The notes below the pieces were generated by a model, which saw only the letters and a list, made by a program, of their open reading frames with translations, was not told where the DNA came from and ran no database searches. From Promethearchaeota archaeon (lineage in GTDB: Archaea > Asgardarchaeota > Lokiarchaeia > Sigyniarchaeales > SOKP01), in NCBI GenBank assembly GCA_016839745.1, contig JAEOTS010000085.1, positions 1 to 30,330 of the forward strand: a stretch of 30,330 bases of DNA, read 5' to 3'. Shown piece after piece: positions 22,810 through 30,330 of this stretch (position 1 is the first letter of the stretch; every line of letters starts with the position of its first letter). The position numbers were made by a program, and so were the translations under genes.

Positions 22810-22820
22810 AGAAATAAGTT

Positions 22821-22845
22821 AAAAAAAGAAATAAAAAGAAATATT
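22821..22845 (-). terminator. U-rich tract after tusA, probable terminator of the hdr operon
   Basis: The minus strand reads atatttctttttatttcttttttt just after the tusA stop. Confidence 0.4.
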
Positions 22846-22855
22846 GATTTTGTTC

Positions 22856-23092
22856 TTACTTTACAGCTTCAAAATACATGTGCCAGAGTTCATCATCGTC
22901 GAGAAAATCCGTCCCTAAGTGTTTGTGCTTAGTTTTTGCTAAATCACGTGGAACCGATTCAGACGCGGGCTTATAATCTGTTATTACTTTTAAGACGGTA
23001 CCTGGTCGCATTTTCATAAGTTGTTTCTTGGTTTTTAACGCAGGTACTGGACAAACTAAGCCACACACGTTTAATTCTTGGTCGAAATTCAT
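22856..23092 (-). CDS. tusA: TusA/SirA family sulfur carrier protein
   Basis: LNVCGLVCPVP (CPxP), GTVLKVITD; 78 aa; GAGGT SD; 39 nt downstream of the preceding gene. Confidence 0.88.
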   Translation of the reverse strand: MNFDQELNVCGLVCPVPALKTKKQLMKMRPGTVLKVITDYKPASESVPRDLAKTKHKHLGTDFLDDDELWHMYFEAVK

Positions 23093-23131
23093 AATTTATA
23101 CCTCTTATTTTTTAATATTTTTTTTAATTCG

Positions 23132-25597
23132 TTAATCTTCACATACAGGTGAAAACATTGGCTCTTCTAAACCCGGTTCAATGTTCATCTCAATTTGATT
23201 CAATTGAACCAATCGTAAAGCTTCATATCGAACTTTTTTGGTCTCTAAATTTAAGGTTTTGGAAATGTTGCTAATCGTAGTCGGACCTTGAAGGGTTACG
23301 TAATCTAAGACTTGTTGTCGGGGAGTTCTTTCTAAGATTTCCATTTCTCTCTTTGATTTCAGATTGATTGCTTTCTTCAATTCGTCCTCATTAACGCTAC
23401 CCTCTTCAAATAATCCTTGAGTTATGGATCTTTCAATAATTTCTTTACCTCTTTCTGTCCACGCTACGACGGTTGTAAAGCCTTGCTTGGAACCAACCTC
23501 ACCAGCCGTGAAATCAGAATAAATTGCAGGAAAATCCTGACAATGTGAACAGTAATGATTGCAACTTAAACACCGTCTAGCTTCGGCTAACGCCATTTCT
23601 TCGGTAAACATTGCTTCGATTTCCTCAAAATTCCATTGGATGTCTTCAGTAGCTTCTTCTAAAGATTCTGGTTTTAGTGAATAATCCTTAGGAGTTCTTG
23701 TAATTCCTTCGAAAAACATTCTATTTTGCATATAACGCCCCTCTGATAAATCTTCTCCATTTAAATATCGATCTATAGAAATAGCCGCTTCTTTCCCGTG
23801 GGCTATTGCCGCAATTGCAACTGCTTTCGAGTGAGTAATGGTATCTCCACCAGCAAATACTCCCGGAATATTGGTTTCAAAAGTTATAGGATCAATCTCG
23901 ATTTTATTATGTTCTTTTTTGAGTTTATTACCCGTAGCAATGTCAATTAAATTAAAATCGACAGCTTGGCCAACGGCGATAACTATAGCATCTGCTTTGA
24001 TCTCATAGTCCGAACCCTCAACTTTATTGATTGGGCGTCTACCAGTATCGTCAGCTTCTCCCCTTGCGATTTTGTAGCTTTTTAGCACCAAATCATCGCC
24101 TCCCCCTTCAGAAATTTTTGATACAGAAGTTTCAAAATGATATTCCATGAATTTTAATTCTTCTTCAGGAATCTCACGCAGAACGAGTTCAAGATCTTTT
24201 TCATTCATAATGTCGACGAGATGGATTTTTTCTGCACCTAGCCTCAGAGCAGTCTGTGCAACATCAACTGCTACAGGGCCACCGCCTATTATTCCAATTG
24301 TTTTACCTTTAAACTCTTGCTGCTTCTGCCAATCTCGATATTTCCTATCGATAAGGAAATTAATAGCAACATGTACATTAGGGAGTTCTTCTCCTTCTAA
24401 GTGCAATGTCCGTGGTTTATACTGACCTGTTGCTATAAAAACGGCTTCATATCCATCATTTTTTAAGTCCTCAATCGTCATATCCGGTCCTAATGGTTTA
24501 TTAAATAGAATTTCCACGCCAGCTTTTTTGATCATCTCAACATCATAATCTAATACATAATCAGGTAACCGGAATTGAGGCACTCCGTATCGAAGCATAC
24601 CGCCAGTGTGATCAGTTTTTTCAAAAATTGTTGGAGTATAACCTTTAAGCGATAAAAAATATCCTGCTGTAAGACCTGCAGGTCCAGCGCCTATTATCGC
24701 AACTCTCTTACCTAATTTCTTCTTACTCTTCACACTCTTTTTTACATCTTGCTTAATTTCGTACTCTGTAATGAATTTTTTTAGTTCCCTGATAGCGACA
24801 GGATGATCCGAACCGATTAAAGTACACCCGTGTTCGCATTCGTGCGTACAAATTCTTCCACATATAGATGGTAGTGGATTGTCATTGCGAATCAAATCTA
24901 CAGCTTCCAGATATTTACCTTCTCGTATTAATGAGATGTATCCTTGAGCATTAACACCCGAAGGGCAACCTCCACAGCATGGCGAGCAGACCAAACCACG
25001 ATCTGTTTCTGCAGTTCTCATGCTTGAGTTACAGAATAGTCCTATTTTAAGGATCTCTCGGTTCATTTCTTCTCCCATTTCAGAAGCTCCTCTTATCTCA
25101 CATGGAACTCCAACGATGCCTACCGGTTCTAGGTTATCTCCAGTTACCTCTACTAGCTTCTCTAAGACCCCAGATCTTCCATATACGACTCCTGCTTTTT
25201 GAACTACATCTTCTGGATCGGTTACTCTGCTTGCTTTAGGCAAATCATCAACATTTTGGACCATCACGACTTCAGATAACTCCTTTTCCTTTAAGAGTTG
25301 TTTTGTAATTGTAGTAACAAATCCTCCGCTTGACGCTTTCTCCAATATTTCAGAGTCCTTACTTCTTAAGGAATAAATTCCTAAGGGTTGAAGCTCTTTA
25401 AATTTTTTCTGCAATACTTGAGGGCAGTTTTGGTAACATTTACCACAATCTTGTCCTTCTCTTTCAAGGATGCAATAATCTTTAAGGGTCGGTCGTAGCG
25501 TTTCCATTTCAATATGTTTGCAGTATCCCGCGCATAGACCACAACCTTGGCATAAGCCCGCCTCAATAATTTCACTTCTTAATAATTCGAAACTCAT
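23132..25597 (-). CDS. Fusion oxidoreductase: ferredoxin + FrhB/FdhB domain interrupted by a GltD/NfnB-like FAD/NAD(P)H module + C-terminal wHTH
   Basis: In order: CQGCGLC and CGKCYQNCP; SSGGFVT, VGVPCE, IGLFC (FrhB); CP...NPLPSICGRIC...C...C (Fer4_20); GAGPAG, GGGPVAVD, GVFAGGD, EARRCLSC; CSHCQDF...SDFTAGEVGS...TTVVAWTERG (FrhB C-terminus); helix-turn-helix tail. Confidence 0.85.
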   Translation of the reverse strand: MSFELLRSEIIEAGLCQGCGLCAGYCKHIEMETLRPTLKDYCILEREGQDCGKCYQNCPQVLQKKFKELQPLGIYSLRSKDSEILEKASSGGFVTTITKQLLKEKELSEVVMVQNVDDLPKASRVTDPEDVVQKAGVVYGRSGVLEKLVEVTGDNLEPVGIVGVPCEIRGASEMGEEMNREILKIGLFCNSSMRTAETDRGLVCSPCCGGCPSGVNAQGYISLIREGKYLEAVDLIRNDNPLPSICGRICTHECEHGCTLIGSDHPVAIRELKKFITEYEIKQDVKKSVKSKKKLGKRVAIIGAGPAGLTAGYFLSLKGYTPTIFEKTDHTGGMLRYGVPQFRLPDYVLDYDVEMIKKAGVEILFNKPLGPDMTIEDLKNDGYEAVFIATGQYKPRTLHLEGEELPNVHVAINFLIDRKYRDWQKQQEFKGKTIGIIGGGPVAVDVAQTALRLGAEKIHLVDIMNEKDLELVLREIPEEELKFMEYHFETSVSKISEGGGDDLVLKSYKIARGEADDTGRRPINKVEGSDYEIKADAIVIAVGQAVDFNLIDIATGNKLKKEHNKIEIDPITFETNIPGVFAGGDTITHSKAVAIAAIAHGKEAAISIDRYLNGEDLSEGRYMQNRMFFEGITRTPKDYSLKPESLEEATEDIQWNFEEIEAMFTEEMALAEARRCLSCNHYCSHCQDFPAIYSDFTAGEVGSKQGFTTVVAWTERGKEIIERSITQGLFEEGSVNEDELKKAINLKSKREMEILERTPRQQVLDYVTLQGPTTISNISKTLNLETKKVRYEALRLVQLNQIEMNIEPGLEEPMFSPVCED

Positions 25598-26835
25598 AAT
25601 AATTCCTCACTAATTTTAATTTTCGTTATAATACCCGTTTGATCAAGGGTATATTCTATCGAACCGTTTTTATAGGTTCCTTCCACCACATCAAAAACAT
25701 GGGCTTTATACTCGTTAAAGTCATCGTTAGGATCGATAATTGACTTGAATCCACCATAAAATACATTTGATAAGTTCATGTTACCAGCAATAAATCGAAT
25801 TTTATCTGTAAGTTCTCTATATTTTGGTGCATCTTCGCTCTCAATGGCTTTTAGTAAATCAGTTTCTAATTGTAAAAGCTCATTTCGGTATTTTTTTGTC
25901 TGTTCGCTTACTTCTATTTGGTTTGCTTTCTCGTAGGATTCAATGAATTTAAGCGTTAACGATATTGATTTAGCGCCACCTAAAAGCCCTGTTATCAAAG
26001 GAATCTCTTCGATCAGTCTACCAATAAAAACGTCTTCCAACAAAGATCCCGAAGAAGGGATTCTACCTTTTGGAAAACCTGAAGTAGGTAATGTAAATCT
26101 GAAAAAATTTCCGACCACATCAGGTAAACTATTGGTTAGATCGTCGTCCTCGTCTCCTAATTTGTCAGTTGCTCCCTTAACTGAATGCTCCGTTGCAATC
26201 TCTATGTTCCCAGCTAAGGTTCCGAACATTGCTAACATGCGAATTCCAGAACGATCTATGCTTGGTTTACACCCTCTACAAGGAGTATTGTAATCAATAC
26301 ATTTTTCTTTACATTCAGTAGCAGTAAAACCACTACATAGAAATCCTAAGTCGTTAAAACAAGTTTCAGAATCTTCTAATTCAATTTGTCTATTGATTGA
26401 TTCTAAATAGTCACAAGTTGCCTTTCTGGAACAAACCTGACATAAACTTTTTAATTTCGGAACTCCTGTTCCGTCAATAGTTAGTTTTAATTCTTCAATT
26501 TCGCCTAAACATCCATGAACATTTTTTGAACCTTCAATTAAGCTTGATAAAGGTGTAACATCGTGACCTTTTTGATTTGCTAAAGCAAATACTCCCCCAG
26601 TAGCCGTACAATCTCCATAGGCAATAATCTTTTTTGAATTGTTCTTTATGCGTTCAATGTTCTCTAAGTCGTTAGGGAGTAAATAGCCAGTAATAACTGA
26701 TACATCGACATTTTCTCCTTTCCAGCTCTTTGGATCGGAAACAAATTCTACTTTGTATTTAACCCCTTCTTTTAATAACAGGGATTCATTGAAGCACTTT
26801 TTACATCCATTAAATTGGAATACTTTAACATCCAT
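25594..26835 (-). CDS. mvhG: MvhG-like hydrogenase small (Fe-S) subunit with a C-terminal extension resembling a degenerate large-subunit fragment
   Basis: GCKKC, AYGDCTATGG, HGC, CQVC...CFNDLGFLC...C...C...PCRGC and DVVGNFFRFTL motifs, plus about 150 extra Cys-free residues. Confidence 0.75.
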   Translation of the reverse strand: MDVKVFQFNGCKKCFNESLLLKEGVKYKVEFVSDPKSWKGENVDVSVITGYLLPNDLENIERIKNNSKKIIAYGDCTATGGVFALANQKGHDVTPLSSLIEGSKNVHGCLGEIEELKLTIDGTGVPKLKSLCQVCSRKATCDYLESINRQIELEDSETCFNDLGFLCSGFTATECKEKCIDYNTPCRGCKPSIDRSGIRMLAMFGTLAGNIEIATEHSVKGATDKLGDEDDDLTNSLPDVVGNFFRFTLPTSGFPKGRIPSSGSLLEDVFIGRLIEEIPLITGLLGGAKSISLTLKFIESYEKANQIEVSEQTKKYRNELLQLETDLLKAIESEDAPKYRELTDKIRFIAGNMNLSNVFYGGFKSIIDPNDDFNEYKAHVFDVVEGTYKNGSIEYTLDQTGIITKIKISEELL

Positions 26836-27277
26836 CTTTTATCGTCCCCTTTTCAGTAATTGCAGTTGTTAATCGATCTATAATATCTTCGAAATCGCCT
26901 ACAGCGGTCTCACCTTCCGCAGCTCTCGAGGTATATTGGTTTACAAATTGGTCGCTGTAACCCAACTCTTTAAAGACTTTTTTCATCAATTTTATTCTAT
27001 GCATCGAAATTACATTACCATTAAAAAAATGACATGCACCTAAGCAACATCCGACGCAAGCAACAGCGTCCGCTCCGTTAGTTAACGCTTCCATGATCTG
27101 AATTGGTCCAACTTGACCTGTGCATTGTACTCTAATTATTCTTATCGCAGCGTCGTACGCCATTCTAGCTACGCCCGCAGTGTTTGCTGAACCTTGACCA
27201 CACTCGTTACACATAAAAACTACAATATTATTAATCCTTTCCTGAACATATTCGTCAGGTACTTCGCAATTGTTCAT
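26825..27277 (-). CDS. mvhD: MvhD/FlpD [2Fe-2S] subunit
   Basis: FMCNEC, IRIIRVQCTG and GADAVACVGCCLGACHF..GN motifs. ATG at 27277 overlaps the hdrA stop (ATGA), so it is preferred over the track start at 27283. Confidence 0.88.
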   Translation of the reverse strand: MNNCEVPDEYVQERINNIVVFMCNECGQGSANTAGVARMAYDAAIRIIRVQCTGQVGPIQIMEALTNGADAVACVGCCLGACHFFNGNVISMHRIKLMKKVFKELGYSDQFVNQYTSRAAEGETAVGDFEDIIDRLTTAITEKGTIKDGC

Positions 27278-29289
27278 TCGCAAACAGCACCCCCACCAGA
27301 TACAGCAGTTATTTCCTCATATATTTGATCATCTGTGAAATTAATCAATTGAATTGCTTTCGTTGGACAACTTGGCATACACATACCACACGATCTACAC
27401 GCAATTTCGTTAACAGTAGGTCTTCCATTTTCGTCAATGTCGATTGCTGCTGGAGCGCAAATAGTTTTACACATTCCACAATTAACGCATAAATCGTAAT
27501 CTATGGATGGTACCAACATTTCTTTTTCTATGTAGCCTTTTACTAAAGGTGCAGCAGCTAACGCAGCGGCACTTCCCGCATGAGCTACAGTTTCTGATAT
27601 GTCTTTTGGTCCTTGAATCGCTCCCGCTAAGAAAATTCCTCCTTTACTACTCAATGTAGGGTTCATCTTAATGTGAAATTCTTTTAAGAATCCTTCCTTG
27701 GAACGTAAAACTTTAAGTTTAGAACCAAGAGGCCCTATTCCTTCAGGGGGAACCATCGCTGCTGACAATACAACCATATCAGCATTTAATTGTAAAGGAG
27801 TCATGCTTAGTGTGTCTTCTACAATAACTTTAAGCTCTCCACTTATTGGGTCTTTAACAATTTCTGAAGGTCTTCCTCGGATAAATCGAACTCCAACTTC
27901 TTGAGCAGATTGATACATTTCTTCAAAATTTAATCCTGGAGTTCTTATATCTATATAACAAATCGTCACATCGGTGTCAGGATACATTTCTTTTACAATT
28001 CGAGCATTTTTTATCGCGAATTTACAGCATACACCAGTACAATATTTATTTCCAACCTGCTCGTTTCTACTACCCACGCATTGAATCATTACAATGCTCT
28101 TAGGTAGTTTACCATCAGATGGTCTTAATACTTCAGAATTGGTAAGGGAGGTAGGTGATAACATTCTTTCCAATTTTAATTGAGTAATAACATCTTCGTA
28201 TCCCTCTTGTCCATAATGATAAGGCTCAATTTCCGTAGGATCATATTCACTATATCCCGCAGCAACTATTATTGAGCCAACTTTAACCGTCTTAGTTTCA
28301 GGTTGCATCGAAAAATCAACCGCTTGGACTGGGCATATGTTAATGCATGTATTACATTCAATACAAGCCTTCTTGTCCCTCACGAATGTTGCGGGAATTG
28401 CTTGTGGATAGGCTTTATAAATAGCGTTCCTCATAGACATTCCTTTATCCCATTCACTGGGAACCTCTACTGGACAGTGTAAAGAGCACTCACCACATGA
28501 AGTACAATTATCCTTCACATACCGAGGCTTAATTTCGATTTGAACTTCAAAATTTCCTAAGGATCCCTCAATGCTTTTAATTTGAGCATTTGTATAAAGC
28601 TCAATTAATGGGTGATTCGCTACTCCGTTAGTTAACGGTGAAATTGAACATTGTGGACACTCTAATGTTGGAAAAGTTTTATTTAATTGCGTCATATGCC
28701 CACCAATTGTCGAATTCTTCTCTACTAAAAACACTGGTATTCCTAATTCCGCCAAATCATTTGAAGCTCTAAGACCCGCGATACCCGCACCAATAACTAA
28801 TGCTGCTTTAGTGGTCGAAATTCGTCTCGTTTCCACATCTTCAAGTTTTCGAGCTCGATTTACTCCAGCCTCGACTAATCGAAGTGCTTTTGCAGTTGCT
28901 TTTTCCTCGTCTTTTTTATGAACCCAACTGCAGTATTCTCGAACGTTGACTTGTTGGTGTTTGTGTTTATTAATACCTTCTTCGGCAATTGCTCTCGCAA
29001 ATGTCTTTCCGTGTTGATTTTTAGAACAACTTGCAACTACGGTTCTATTAACCCCTAACTCTTTAATTGAATCCTTTACCATTTGAACGCCGGGTTTTGA
29101 ACACATAAACATGTAATGTTCTGCTTTTACAACATTTGGTAAATTTTTTGCGTAATCTGCTACTTTTGCGACGTCCACAGTTCCAGCAATGTTGTGACCG
29201 CAATGACATACAAAAACCCCAATTCTGGGTTCTTCAGATTCGCTCGATTCAACTTTACTTTTTTCCATTTTTTCTTCTTTAACGGCCAT
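27274..29289 (-). CDS. hdrA: Heterodisulfide reductase subunit A (FAD, Fe-S)
   Basis: RIGVFVCHCGHNIAG, VNVREYCSWVH, GAGIAG, KTFPTLECPQC, inserted ferredoxin, IQCVGSR...YCTGVCC, GPKDI and C-terminal ferredoxin. Confidence 0.96.
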   Translation of the reverse strand: MAVKEEKMEKSKVESSESEEPRIGVFVCHCGHNIAGTVDVAKVADYAKNLPNVVKAEHYMFMCSKPGVQMVKDSIKELGVNRTVVASCSKNQHGKTFARAIAEEGINKHKHQQVNVREYCSWVHKKDEEKATAKALRLVEAGVNRARKLEDVETRRISTTKAALVIGAGIAGLRASNDLAELGIPVFLVEKNSTIGGHMTQLNKTFPTLECPQCSISPLTNGVANHPLIELYTNAQIKSIEGSLGNFEVQIEIKPRYVKDNCTSCGECSLHCPVEVPSEWDKGMSMRNAIYKAYPQAIPATFVRDKKACIECNTCINICPVQAVDFSMQPETKTVKVGSIIVAAGYSEYDPTEIEPYHYGQEGYEDVITQLKLERMLSPTSLTNSEVLRPSDGKLPKSIVMIQCVGSRNEQVGNKYCTGVCCKFAIKNARIVKEMYPDTDVTICYIDIRTPGLNFEEMYQSAQEVGVRFIRGRPSEIVKDPISGELKVIVEDTLSMTPLQLNADMVVLSAAMVPPEGIGPLGSKLKVLRSKEGFLKEFHIKMNPTLSSKGGIFLAGAIQGPKDISETVAHAGSAAALAAAPLVKGYIEKEMLVPSIDYDLCVNCGMCKTICAPAAIDIDENGRPTVNEIACRSCGMCMPSCPTKAIQLINFTDDQIYEEITAVSGGGAVCE

Positions 29290-30207
29290 CTATATTGCCT
29301 CCTCTTCTTTTTTAACTTCTTCGCCACCAAATATGTAATCCTTTCCCATCATTTGATATTGAAGACCAACAAATTCTTGGTCCATCCCCATACAATATGC
29401 AACAAGTTGGGAAAGATGAATTACTGGATAATCGTAATTACAGCTTTTATTCTTGTTTAAATAATCTTGTCCCGTTTCAAATTGTAAGTGACAGAAAGGA
29501 CAAATATCTAAAATAAAGTCTGGTTCTACCTCGTCAATATTTTTCATCTTTTCTCCAAAAATTGTCATGCTCGTATCGCCGGAATACGCTTTTACGCCCC
29601 CACCAGCACCGCAACATGTAAGTTGTTCTTTGAATCTGACTGATTCCACTCCTAAAACTTCAATAAATTCTTCAACAATCGTCGGTCCTTCTGAACTCTC
29701 AATCTCTCGAATTCTTGTTGGTTTTAGAAAATGACAACCATAATGTACAGCCGCACGCGCGTTTAATTTTCTTGTAATTACTTCTTCTATACCCCATGGA
29801 CCTATTTCGTATCCTAACACTTCGGCTACATGACGCACATCAATCGTACCTTGAAACTCGTAATCTCCGAGCAGTTTTAATTTTTCATTTACTAATTCTC
29901 GTTGTTCTTCATTCTCTTTTAAATGTTTATTAATCTCTTGGAGTGTTCCAAAGCACCCATTACAAACTGTAAGGATATCGGCATCAAGCTTTTCAGCTAT
30001 ACACAAGTTTCTGGCACCCGCCACCATCCAATCAACCTTGTTAAAGGATCGAAAGACCCCTGGAGCTGGACAACAACTGGCGCGTTCCATGTCTAAGATC
30101 TCATACCCTAGTTTTTTCATTACAAACTTCGTTGCTTTTTCAATCGCAGGATATCTATTCGGCATAAGACATCCCAGAAAAAACGAAAATGTTTGTTCTT
30201 TTGCCAT
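29290..30207 (-). CDS. hdrB: Heterodisulfide reductase subunit B (two CCG domains)
   Basis: FFLGC, CCPAPG, TVCNGC, HYGCH, CCGAGGG and CPFC motifs. Confidence 0.96.
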   Translation of the reverse strand: MAKEQTFSFFLGCLMPNRYPAIEKATKFVMKKLGYEILDMERASCCPAPGVFRSFNKVDWMVAGARNLCIAEKLDADILTVCNGCFGTLQEINKHLKENEEQRELVNEKLKLLGDYEFQGTIDVRHVAEVLGYEIGPWGIEEVITRKLNARAAVHYGCHFLKPTRIREIESSEGPTIVEEFIEVLGVESVRFKEQLTCCGAGGGVKAYSGDTSMTIFGEKMKNIDEVEPDFILDICPFCHLQFETGQDYLNKNKSCNYDYPVIHLSQLVAYCMGMDQEFVGLQYQMMGKDYIFGGEEVKKEEEAI

Positions 30208-30210
30208 TTC

Positions 30211-30330
30211 TTACTTCTCCCCTTTTTTATCTTCCTTTTTTTTCTCCTCCTTTGGAGGAGGTAAATCGAATAAATGTTCTTCAAATTTCTTTAAATCTTC
30301 ATCATCTCCCTCTTGTTTAAATTTAAACGC
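30211..30330 (-). CDS. C-terminal 39 codons of the upstream gene, probably HdrC by synteny
   Basis: Open frame AFKFKQEGDDEDLKKFEEHLFDLPPPKEEKKKEDKKGEK* ends 3 nt before the hdrB ATG. Identity is inferred only from the usual hdrCB order. Confidence 0.55.
   Translation of the reverse strand, partial: AFKFKQEGDDEDLKKFEEHLFDLPPPKEEKKKEDKKGEK

Follow-up and report, generated by a model that had tools for sequence, protein, structure and literature searches.

A Lokiarchaeial operon for a candidate heterodisulfide reductase complex with a hydrogenase-derived input arm

The 30,330-nt contig JAEOTS010000085.1 of a Promethearchaeota archaeon (Lokiarchaeia; assembly GCA_016839745.1), hereafter called the window, carries a block of heterodisulfide reductase (Hdr) and associated genes at positions 22856-30330. 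We propose, with a probability of roughly 0.55, that this block is the distal part of an operon encoding a cytoplasmic complex of HdrABC and MvhD, with an input arm of hydrogenase origin that has lost the use of H2. This arm would comprise a small-subunit homolog, here called MvhG*, that is fused to an apparent relic of a [NiFe] large subunit, and a flavoprotein, FrhB::GltD, that is encoded at the position otherwise held by mvhA and in which a GltD-type module interrupts FrhB.

Hdr genes occur widely among archaea that make no methane, Asgard lineages included, and are usually filed under the label "MvhADG-HdrABC hydrogenase." The operon described here suggests that, despite this usual labeling, at least one such complex that is conserved in Asgard archaea is probably not a hydrogenase. 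An initial annotation of the window had already pointed to a hydrogenase-less Hdr unit of seven genes, supplied with electrons by NAD(P)H and possibly by reduced coenzyme F420 (F420H2), and had called its architecture unfamiliar. The analysis below retains much of that proposal and revises its extent, its donors, and its likely substrate.

Results

A conserved twelve-gene operon

Seven tightly coupled minus-strand open reading frames (ORFs) fill the block. When the ORFs, their Pfam and NCBIfam matches, and their junctions were read again, the gene calls, domains, and coupling of the initial annotation were recovered unchanged. All seven genes are real, but they do not constitute the entire unit, which has 12 genes and includes an upstream TusA-DsrEFH-DsrE2 relay. 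The contig end cuts the cluster, such that the window holds only its seven distal genes. The complete order, tusA-dsrE-dsrF-dsrH-dsrE2-hdrC-hdrB-hdrA-mvhD-mvhG*-frhB::gltD-tusA, is found in about 65 species-level Promethearchaeota genomes wherever the contig reaches.

These genomes came from a scan of species-representative genomes that returned 79 loci, about 65 of them from Promethearchaeota; outside this group, matches were confined to the GltD part of the fusion. The order hdrB-hdrA-mvhD-mvhG*-fusion-tusA is retained in all 13 relatives of the same GTDB family (13/13) where the locus extends, and more than 100 homologs of the fusion, approximately 820 amino acids long and 70-97% identical, were recovered. 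Thus, the expectation that hdrCBA-mvhD-mvhG-frhB::gltD-tusA synteny would recur in other genomes was borne out. A tusA gene lies 3′ of the fusion in every resolved locus that reaches that far, except for three (L123, L140, and L154), and 3′ of a plain FrhB gene in four of five more distant loci.

The operon is also present in Ca. Sigynarchaeum and in the cultured Promethearchaeum syntrophicum MK-D1, whose fusion protein is 54% identical to that of the window. The MK-D1 genes (DSAG12_01139-01151) are reported to be transcribed, at 182-348 reads per kilobase per million. Just upstream of the first tusA of its operon, MK-D1 carries a second, divergent hdrABC set (L141:327-1900, DSAG12_01136-01138). 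In Ca. Sigynarchaeum springense, codon 498 of the fusion ortholog (L135:10001-12451) is an in-frame TAA, after which the frame remains open as far as codon 816; a pseudogene, read-through of the stop codon, or an error in the sequence could explain this.

In relatives, the region 5′ of hdrC holds tusA, dsrE, dsrF, dsrH, and a DrsE_2 gene, plus a divergent Lrp/AsnC regulator; the regulator of MK-D1 is placed between dsrE2 and hdrC rather than upstream. The genome bin to which the window belongs encodes this upstream half of the operon, including TusA, DsrE, DsrF, DsrH, and DrsE_2, on contig C18. A full-length hdrC is likewise present on that contig and in relatives, and the HdrC fragment in the window is 92% identical to the HdrC C terminus of relatives. 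Positions 19434-20280 of contig C18 and 29484-30330 of the window form an 847-bp end overlap across hdrC-hdrB with only 92% nucleotide identity (an overlap of contigs C18 and C52 in the numbering of the bin), and two copies of cofH are present, on contigs C104 and C106. A mixture of two strains in the bin, or else a duplication of the operon, probably accounts for this.

MvhG* is an iron-sulfur wire joined to a putative large-subunit relic

The initial annotation regarded MvhG as an iron-sulfur wire, and the conservation of its ligands agrees with this role. All 13 Cys residues of MvhG* are 100% conserved among 61 orthologs, with four assigned to the proximal cluster and nine to the medial and distal clusters, and thus the ligands of all three clusters are kept. 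Ordinary small subunits of relatives stop where the MvhG* core stops. The additional residues of MvhG* (256-413) include no conserved Cys, and among the same orthologs they score 0.78 for conservation, the same value as the core. The phylum includes at least five GTDB families in which this extension domain was found.

Profile comparisons point to the origin of the extension. When 13 sequences were used, hhalign placed it against residues 36-187 of [NiFe] large subunits with a probability of 37%; with 61 sequences, the same region was matched at 73% (E = 3e-5). In the alignment, the Ni-ligand motif RICGIC falls opposite GLLGG, and the four Cys ligands of a Ni-Fe site are not found in the extension. 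A HMMER profile of the extension alone matches 434-amino acid ORFs of another family at approximately 1e-6; the presence of RICAIC and DPCISC motifs marks these proteins as true large subunits.

A structure model of MvhG* was generated with AlphaFold2 from a 96-sequence alignment (predicted local distance difference test [pLDDT] of 92, predicted template modeling score of 0.91); a model based on 13 close orthologs gave a pLDDT of 45 and was discarded. The model superimposes on MvhG (5ODC_E) with a Z score of 21.4 and a root mean square deviation of 2.5 over 242 residues, spanning MvhG* residues 1-259, and the core also aligns to MvhG by sequence. A wide VIA-align search with the model returned FrhA (6QGT_A; Z 10.1, 160 residues aligned) and NuoD-type 49-kDa subunits of complex I (Z of about 9, 169 residues aligned). 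Foldseek comparison with the PDB showed only small subunits among the matches listed, and large-subunit matches appeared only in the wide VIA-align search. From the profile and fold comparisons, which cover part of the large-subunit fold, we conclude with moderate confidence that the C-terminal domain of MvhG* is a relic of a [NiFe] large subunit that has become fused to the small subunit.

Hydrogenases occur in the lineage outside the operon

As initially annotated, no large subunit with RxCGxC and DPCxxC motifs is encoded in the window, and the mvhA position was not seen to be filled in other genomes either. In more than 60 genomes, screening of the loci with the proteins of the operon itself, and without a large-subunit query, revealed no large subunit within the operon. 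Large-subunit families PF00374 and PF00346 were also not found in the genome bin, which is 89% complete. A search for a separate mvhA gave a mixed outcome, wherein none was detected in the bin but relatives have separate, complete hydrogenases. Group-3-type large subunits are present in 42 of the 46 family genomes, with one to three per relative. At each of the 14 large-subunit loci inspected (14/14), the gene adjoins its own small-subunit gene (full-length copies of 436-459 amino acids), and in G071 the large subunit also adjoins further Hdr genes.

An organism devoid of hydrogenase was considered and rejected, given the HypD fragment at a contig edge of the bin, the 89% completeness of the bin, and the large subunits of 42/46 family members. 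Because of the HypD fragment, we claim the absence of a hydrogenase for the operon only; the operon is hydrogenase-less, and the organism probably is not.

Some of these separate hydrogenases have features of their own. The DPCxxC motif is missing within the ORF in nine of the ten large subunits inspected. At locus L072 (5940-6113; genome G071, contig C8), a 434-amino acid large subunit ends in PDPWIN, without a C-terminal DPCxxC, and is followed by a mini-ORF ending in RCFDC-TGA-LSC that looks like a VhuU-like selenocysteine peptide. If so, the enzyme would be a [NiFeSe] hydrogenase of the split kind known from Methanococcus.

These data bear on the possibility that MvhG* belongs to a functional hydrogenase as its small subunit, with the large subunit encoded elsewhere. 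The operon would then specify an ordinary H2-dependent Mvh-Hdr complex, which is the general assumption in work on Asgard archaea. Such an arrangement would be consistent with the one to three large subunits of relatives, with HypD in the bin, with the intact proximal-cluster Cys residues of MvhG*, and with published descriptions of "MvhADG-HdrABC" from Asgard archaea, MK-D1 included. However, each large subunit of the relatives is paired with an adjoining small subunit of its own (at L072, with the VhuU-like peptide as well), and the conserved large-subunit-like domain of MvhG* would occupy the place of a large subunit. Two motifs of the small subunit are also altered, with CKKC in place of CxGC and HGCLG in place of PGCPP, and none of the operons, as screened with their own proteins, showed a large subunit. 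We therefore regard a working hydrogenase as very unlikely.

The flavoprotein FrhB::GltD carries two candidate hydride-accepting sites

The closest solved structures to the FrhB part of the fusion are the F420-reductase modules 8RJA_E and 8RIU_B and the enzyme Fsr (7NP8). The first two are plug-in F420 reductase modules of the Ethanoperedens Fwd and CODH enzymes (PMC11493965). Both halves of the interrupted FrhB are conserved relative to solved F420 modules, where the second half was aligned to 8RJA_E and to FrhB 3ZFS_C. Alignment with plain FrhB orthologs shows that the GltD unit of approximately 450 amino acids interrupts FrhB after its GLFC and before its CxHC cluster ligands. The best PDB matches to this insert are 9BOV_A, NfnA (9N5U_A), 8OH5_C, and NfnB (4YLF_B), and the unit is closest to the NADPH-binding modules of NfnA/NfnB/StnA-type enzymes.

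The fusion differs from these enzymes at the nucleotide site. An alignment with NfnA, NfnB, and GltD reveals that YRR, which in NADPH enzymes engages the 2′-phosphate, is replaced by D-I-M with an invariant Asp, and this replacement favors NADH over NADPH as the nucleotide predicted to bind the GltD site. NADPH, which had been read as a donor from the GxGxxA motif, was dropped after the alignment at the end of β2 showed the YRR-to-DIM change.

Divergent loci of the MvhG* family, identified among 1.84 billion representatives, have the same operon but encode a plain FrhB of 345-389 amino acids without GltD. The fact that distant lineages have plain FrhB at the fusion position suggests that F420H2, acting via FrhB, was probably the ancestral donor. 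The genome of the window encodes CofH and CofE for F420 synthesis. Thus, the initial proposal of NAD(P)H and possibly F420H2 as donors survives in that both flavoprotein sites are kept, but NADPH is disfavored and F420H2 probably came first. Likewise, the fusion and TusA remain supported as partners by their conservation in the operon, with the qualification that distant lineages have plain FrhB and that three loci depart from the rule for tusA.

Other features of the fusion and its relatives were also noted. Positions 23135-23380 of the window (fusion residues ~740-821) encode a winged-helix-like tail that carries the JGI label "predicted transcriptional regulator." A tail of this kind is also present on plain FrhB orthologs of other families, and docking is one possible role. 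On two contigs of the same bin (C145:373-5438 and C185:32023-34014), an HdrC-like gene lies beside GltD-type proteins of 922-926 amino acids that are 53% identical to the insert. These clusters also include a 917-amino acid ORF that contains FrhB, and the bin has at least 10 FrhB-family matches in total.

Sulfur carriers and the substrate of HdrB

The two TusA and four DsrE-family genes of the operon are kept across families, and Cys14 of the TusA CPxP motif is 100% conserved in 64 orthologs. A second dsrEFH set is located on contig C73 of the same bin. HdrB has two CCG domains with both CX(n)CCX(n)CXXC motifs, the sites for two noncubane [4Fe-4S] clusters. McrA, ComA, and DsrC (PF04358) were not found in the bin, which is a weak negative given the incomplete and mixed state of this assembly. 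Because none of these three was found and because TusA, DsrEFH, and DsrE2 are encoded in the operon, the substrate of HdrB would most likely be sulfane sulfur (persulfide or polysulfide) or a disulfide on TusA/DsrE carriers.

An alternative substrate is a low-molecular-weight heterodisulfide, either that of coenzymes M and B (CoM-S-S-CoB) or of another thiol pair, which would be reduced with F420H2 or NADH while the carriers serve only cofactor or Fe-S biosynthesis. The score of HdrB above the TIGR03288 equivalog cut-off, the similarity of HdrA to HdrA2 as its closest family, and the existence of F420-dependent Hdr complexes (PMC12350162; PMC8498797) are all compatible with this alternative. 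We nevertheless consider it unlikely, since searches of the 89%-complete bin for McrA and ComA found neither and since two TusA and four DsrE-family genes within one unit across families are hard to square with housekeeping.

The complex could also operate in the opposite direction. In an oxidative scheme resembling sHdr, sulfane sulfur delivered by TusA/DsrE would be oxidized at HdrB, and the electrons, together with those of reduced ferredoxin (confurcation), would reduce F420, NAD+, or both. As hallmark companions of sHdr (PMC11094781), carriers of the TusA and DsrE families speak for this scheme, as do the conservation of the carrier genes in this operon and the reversibility that known enzymes show for their FrhB and GltD modules. 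The operon, however, has a single HdrBC set with MvhD and a long, bifurcation-type HdrA, and not the hdrC1B1A-hyp-hdrC2B2 arrangement with a short HdrA. Furthermore, a lipoate-binding protein gene is absent from the 12 genes of the operon (no genome-wide search was made), and the organisms are described as fermentative anaerobes (PMC7015854). An oxidative function is thus quite unlikely in our view, and reduction of carrier-bound sulfur remains the preferred reading. A molybdopterin-family protein of the ElpA/FdhA type is also not encoded in the operon.

Gene organization in the window

The features of the gene block are compiled in Table 1. HdrA is of the long type found in methanogens and has two ferredoxin regions, one inserted and one C-terminal (Fer4 at residues 255-334 and 593-650). 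As read from the sequence, the TAG of hdrB directly abuts the ATG of hdrA, ATGA overlaps join hdrA to mvhD and mvhG to the fusion, mvhD and mvhG overlap by 11 nt, and a 39-nt spacer containing GAGGT separates the fusion from tusA. The start of mvhD is likely the ATG at 27277, which gives the ATGA overlap with hdrA.

The T-rich stretch downstream of tusA is a probable archaeal terminator. The initial annotation had noted a U-tract only at this location. The T5 and T7 runs are indeed present, but runs of T6-T7 also occur within coding regions near 30183, 27029, 26107, and 24659, and the tract is therefore not unique.

Table 1. Features of the gene block and their positions in the window
Feature	Position	Strand	Basis
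hdrC, 3′ end only	30211..30330	-	translated last 40 codons; gene runs off contig
hdrB, 305 aa	29290..30207	-	PF02754; TIGR03288 366 bits, cut-off 345
hdrA, 671 aa	27274..29289	-	NF040770 HdrA2 743 bits, profile positions 1-641
mvhD, [2Fe-2S] connector	26825..27283	-	PF02662 FlpD, E = 7e-31
mvhG*, whole gene, 413 aa	25594-26835	-	Oxidored_q6/VhuG
MvhG* residues 1-255, hydrogenase small-subunit core	26071..26835	-	proximal, medial, and distal cluster Cys kept
MvhG* residues 256-413, Cys-free putative [NiFe] large-subunit relic	25594..26070	-	profile, HMMER, and fold comparisons
frhB::gltD, whole gene, 821 aa	23132-25597	-	FrhB_N, Fer4_20, Pyr_redox_2, FrhB_C
Fusion residues 1-199: 2x[4Fe-4S] ferredoxin domain, FrhB_N, first FrhB_C part (GVPC, GLFC)	25001..25597	-	Pfam, NCBIfam
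Fusion residues ~200-650: inserted GltD/NfnB-type module (two [4Fe-4S], FAD, NAD(P)H site)	23648..25000	-	Fer4_20, Pyr_redox_2
Fusion residues 651-821: rest of FrhB_C (CxHC ligands, DF..D..G..G) and winged-helix-like tail	23132..23647	-	FrhB_FdhB_C positions 64-148
tusA, 78 aa, last gene	22856..23092	-	PF01206; CPVP; own GAGGT ribosome-binding site
T-rich stretch 3′ of tusA (T5, T7 runs), probable terminator	22815..22850	-	letters read directly

Discussion

A proposed route for electrons

The gene content, the conserved ligands, and the homology of the MvhG* extension are compatible with the following scheme. The FrhB flavin of FrhB::GltD, probably the ancestral site, would take a hydride from F420H2, and the flavin of the inserted GltD module would probably also accept a hydride from NADH. 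Electrons would then pass through the Fe-S clusters of the fusion to the three [4Fe-4S] clusters of MvhG*, from which they would reach the bifurcating flavin adenine dinucleotide of HdrA via MvhD and its [2Fe-2S] cluster. At this flavin, one electron pair would be driven uphill to ferredoxin, with the other moving downhill through HdrC to HdrB. The metal-free relic in MvhG* would take the place of the Ni-Fe subunit, perhaps as a cap or as a docking platform. Overall, the complex would carry out an F420H2/NADH-driven, ferredoxin-coupled reduction of carrier-bound sulfur or disulfide, in a reaction that may be reversible. In its most specific form, wherein Lokiarchaeia possess a nickel-independent, dual-donor (F420H2 and NADH) flavin-based bifurcating Hdr with protein-bound sulfane sulfur on TusA/DsrE as the high-potential acceptor, the proposal is tentative, and we hold it with clearly less confidence than the general reading.

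Several points weigh against the proposal. First, the energetics of the reaction are uncertain. F420H2 and NADH have potentials of approximately -320 to -360 mV, and bifurcation to ferredoxin needs an acceptor clearly above S0/H2S (-270 mV). Second, genome G271, which belongs to the same order, has a 142-amino acid ferredoxin-like remnant at the fusion position (L173:8868-9293), which indicates that the flavoprotein is not strictly indispensable. The remnant combines the N-terminal 2x[4Fe-4S] domain with the C-terminal tail; MvhG* (430 amino acids) and tusA are kept. Third, when the extension was searched with HMMER against the 1.84 billion representatives, no large subunit was found among the best 150 of 213 matches. 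Finally, the bin is 89% complete and mixed, and negative gene searches in it are therefore weak.

Significance

A search of the literature, which did not reach subscription-only papers, found none that characterizes the complex or a hydrogenase-less arm of this type, and the impression that the architecture is unfamiliar thus holds for the openly searchable literature. Imachi 2020 lists the MK-D1 operon genes without a function, and its text names only MvhADG-HdrABC. A 2025 preprint proposes that in another Asgard archaeon a hydrogenase drives Hdr reduction of TusA/DsrE persulfides.

The proposed combination of F420H2/NADH donors with TusA/DsrE-bound sulfur offers a concrete, testable substrate proposal for Hdr in the absence of methanogenesis. 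Because the cultured MK-D1 carries the operon, the hypothesis can be tested directly. If true, it would answer what role Hdr has in non-methanogenic archaea, and would add a new energy-coupling reaction through which sulfur cycling is tied to redox balance in the cultured organisms most closely related to eukaryotes. The hydrogen and sulfur syntrophy models of eukaryogenesis would be touched as well.

Comparison with known systems

The closest counterparts by subunit composition are MvhAGD-HdrABC and VhuAGD-HdrABC of methanogens (5ODC, 9SW2), which share HdrC, HdrB, long HdrA, MvhD, and a three-cluster MvhG-type subunit with the system described here. In contrast to these complexes, the Lokiarchaeial operon lacks a catalytic MvhA, has a Cys-free putative relic fused to MvhG with FrhB::GltD at the mvhA position, and includes sulfur-carrier genes; neither Mcr nor ComA turned up in the bin. 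The small subunit of FrhAGB (4OMF, 6QGR) is likewise a hydrogenase subunit paired with FrhB, and FrhA is the best large-subunit fold match of the relic. FrhAGB differs in that here no active large subunit is present and the small subunit is of the MvhG type and coupled to MvhD-Hdr. Relative to the FrhB of that enzyme, the fusion has an N-terminal ferredoxin domain, the GltD insert, and the winged-helix tail.

In the sHdr-LbpA system (PMC11094781), too, Hdr-type BC subunits have a genetic link to sulfur transferases of the TusA and DsrE families. The present operon is distinguished from that system by its long bifurcating HdrA with MvhD, its single HdrBC set, the lack of LbpA among its genes, and its hydrogenase-derived arm. 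A sulfur-carrier protein is also the proposed substrate of FlxABCD-HdrABC of Desulfovibrio and syntrophs, where DsrC is named as the candidate for HdrB in work that cites Ferreira 2023. Both systems would pass electrons from an NADH-linked flavoprotein via an MvhD-like subunit to HdrABC, but FlxA, FlxB, and FlxC are unrelated to FrhB::GltD and MvhG*, and the carriers here are TusA, DsrEFH, and DsrE2, with DsrC not found in the bin.

The nearest parallel in logic is ElpABC-HdrABC of Methanothermobacter marburgensis, wherein a cofactor-less, truncated FdhA and an F420-oxidizing FdhB replace Mvh (PMC12350162). In both complexes, a cofactor-less remnant of a catalytic subunit, a flavoprotein of the FrhB/FdhB family, and an MvhD homolog would feed HdrA. 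The Elp scaffold derives from FdhA and not from the small and large subunits of a [NiFe] hydrogenase, Elp has neither a GltD/NADH module nor sulfur carriers, and its substrate is CoM-S-S-CoB. The Lokiarchaeial operon would therefore be a second, independent case after Elp in which a catalytic subunit has decayed to a scaffold, letting a flavoprotein plug into HdrA. Judging from its genes, the complex would work like Mvh-Hdr, Elp-Hdr, and Flx-Hdr, yet it misses a defining feature of each.

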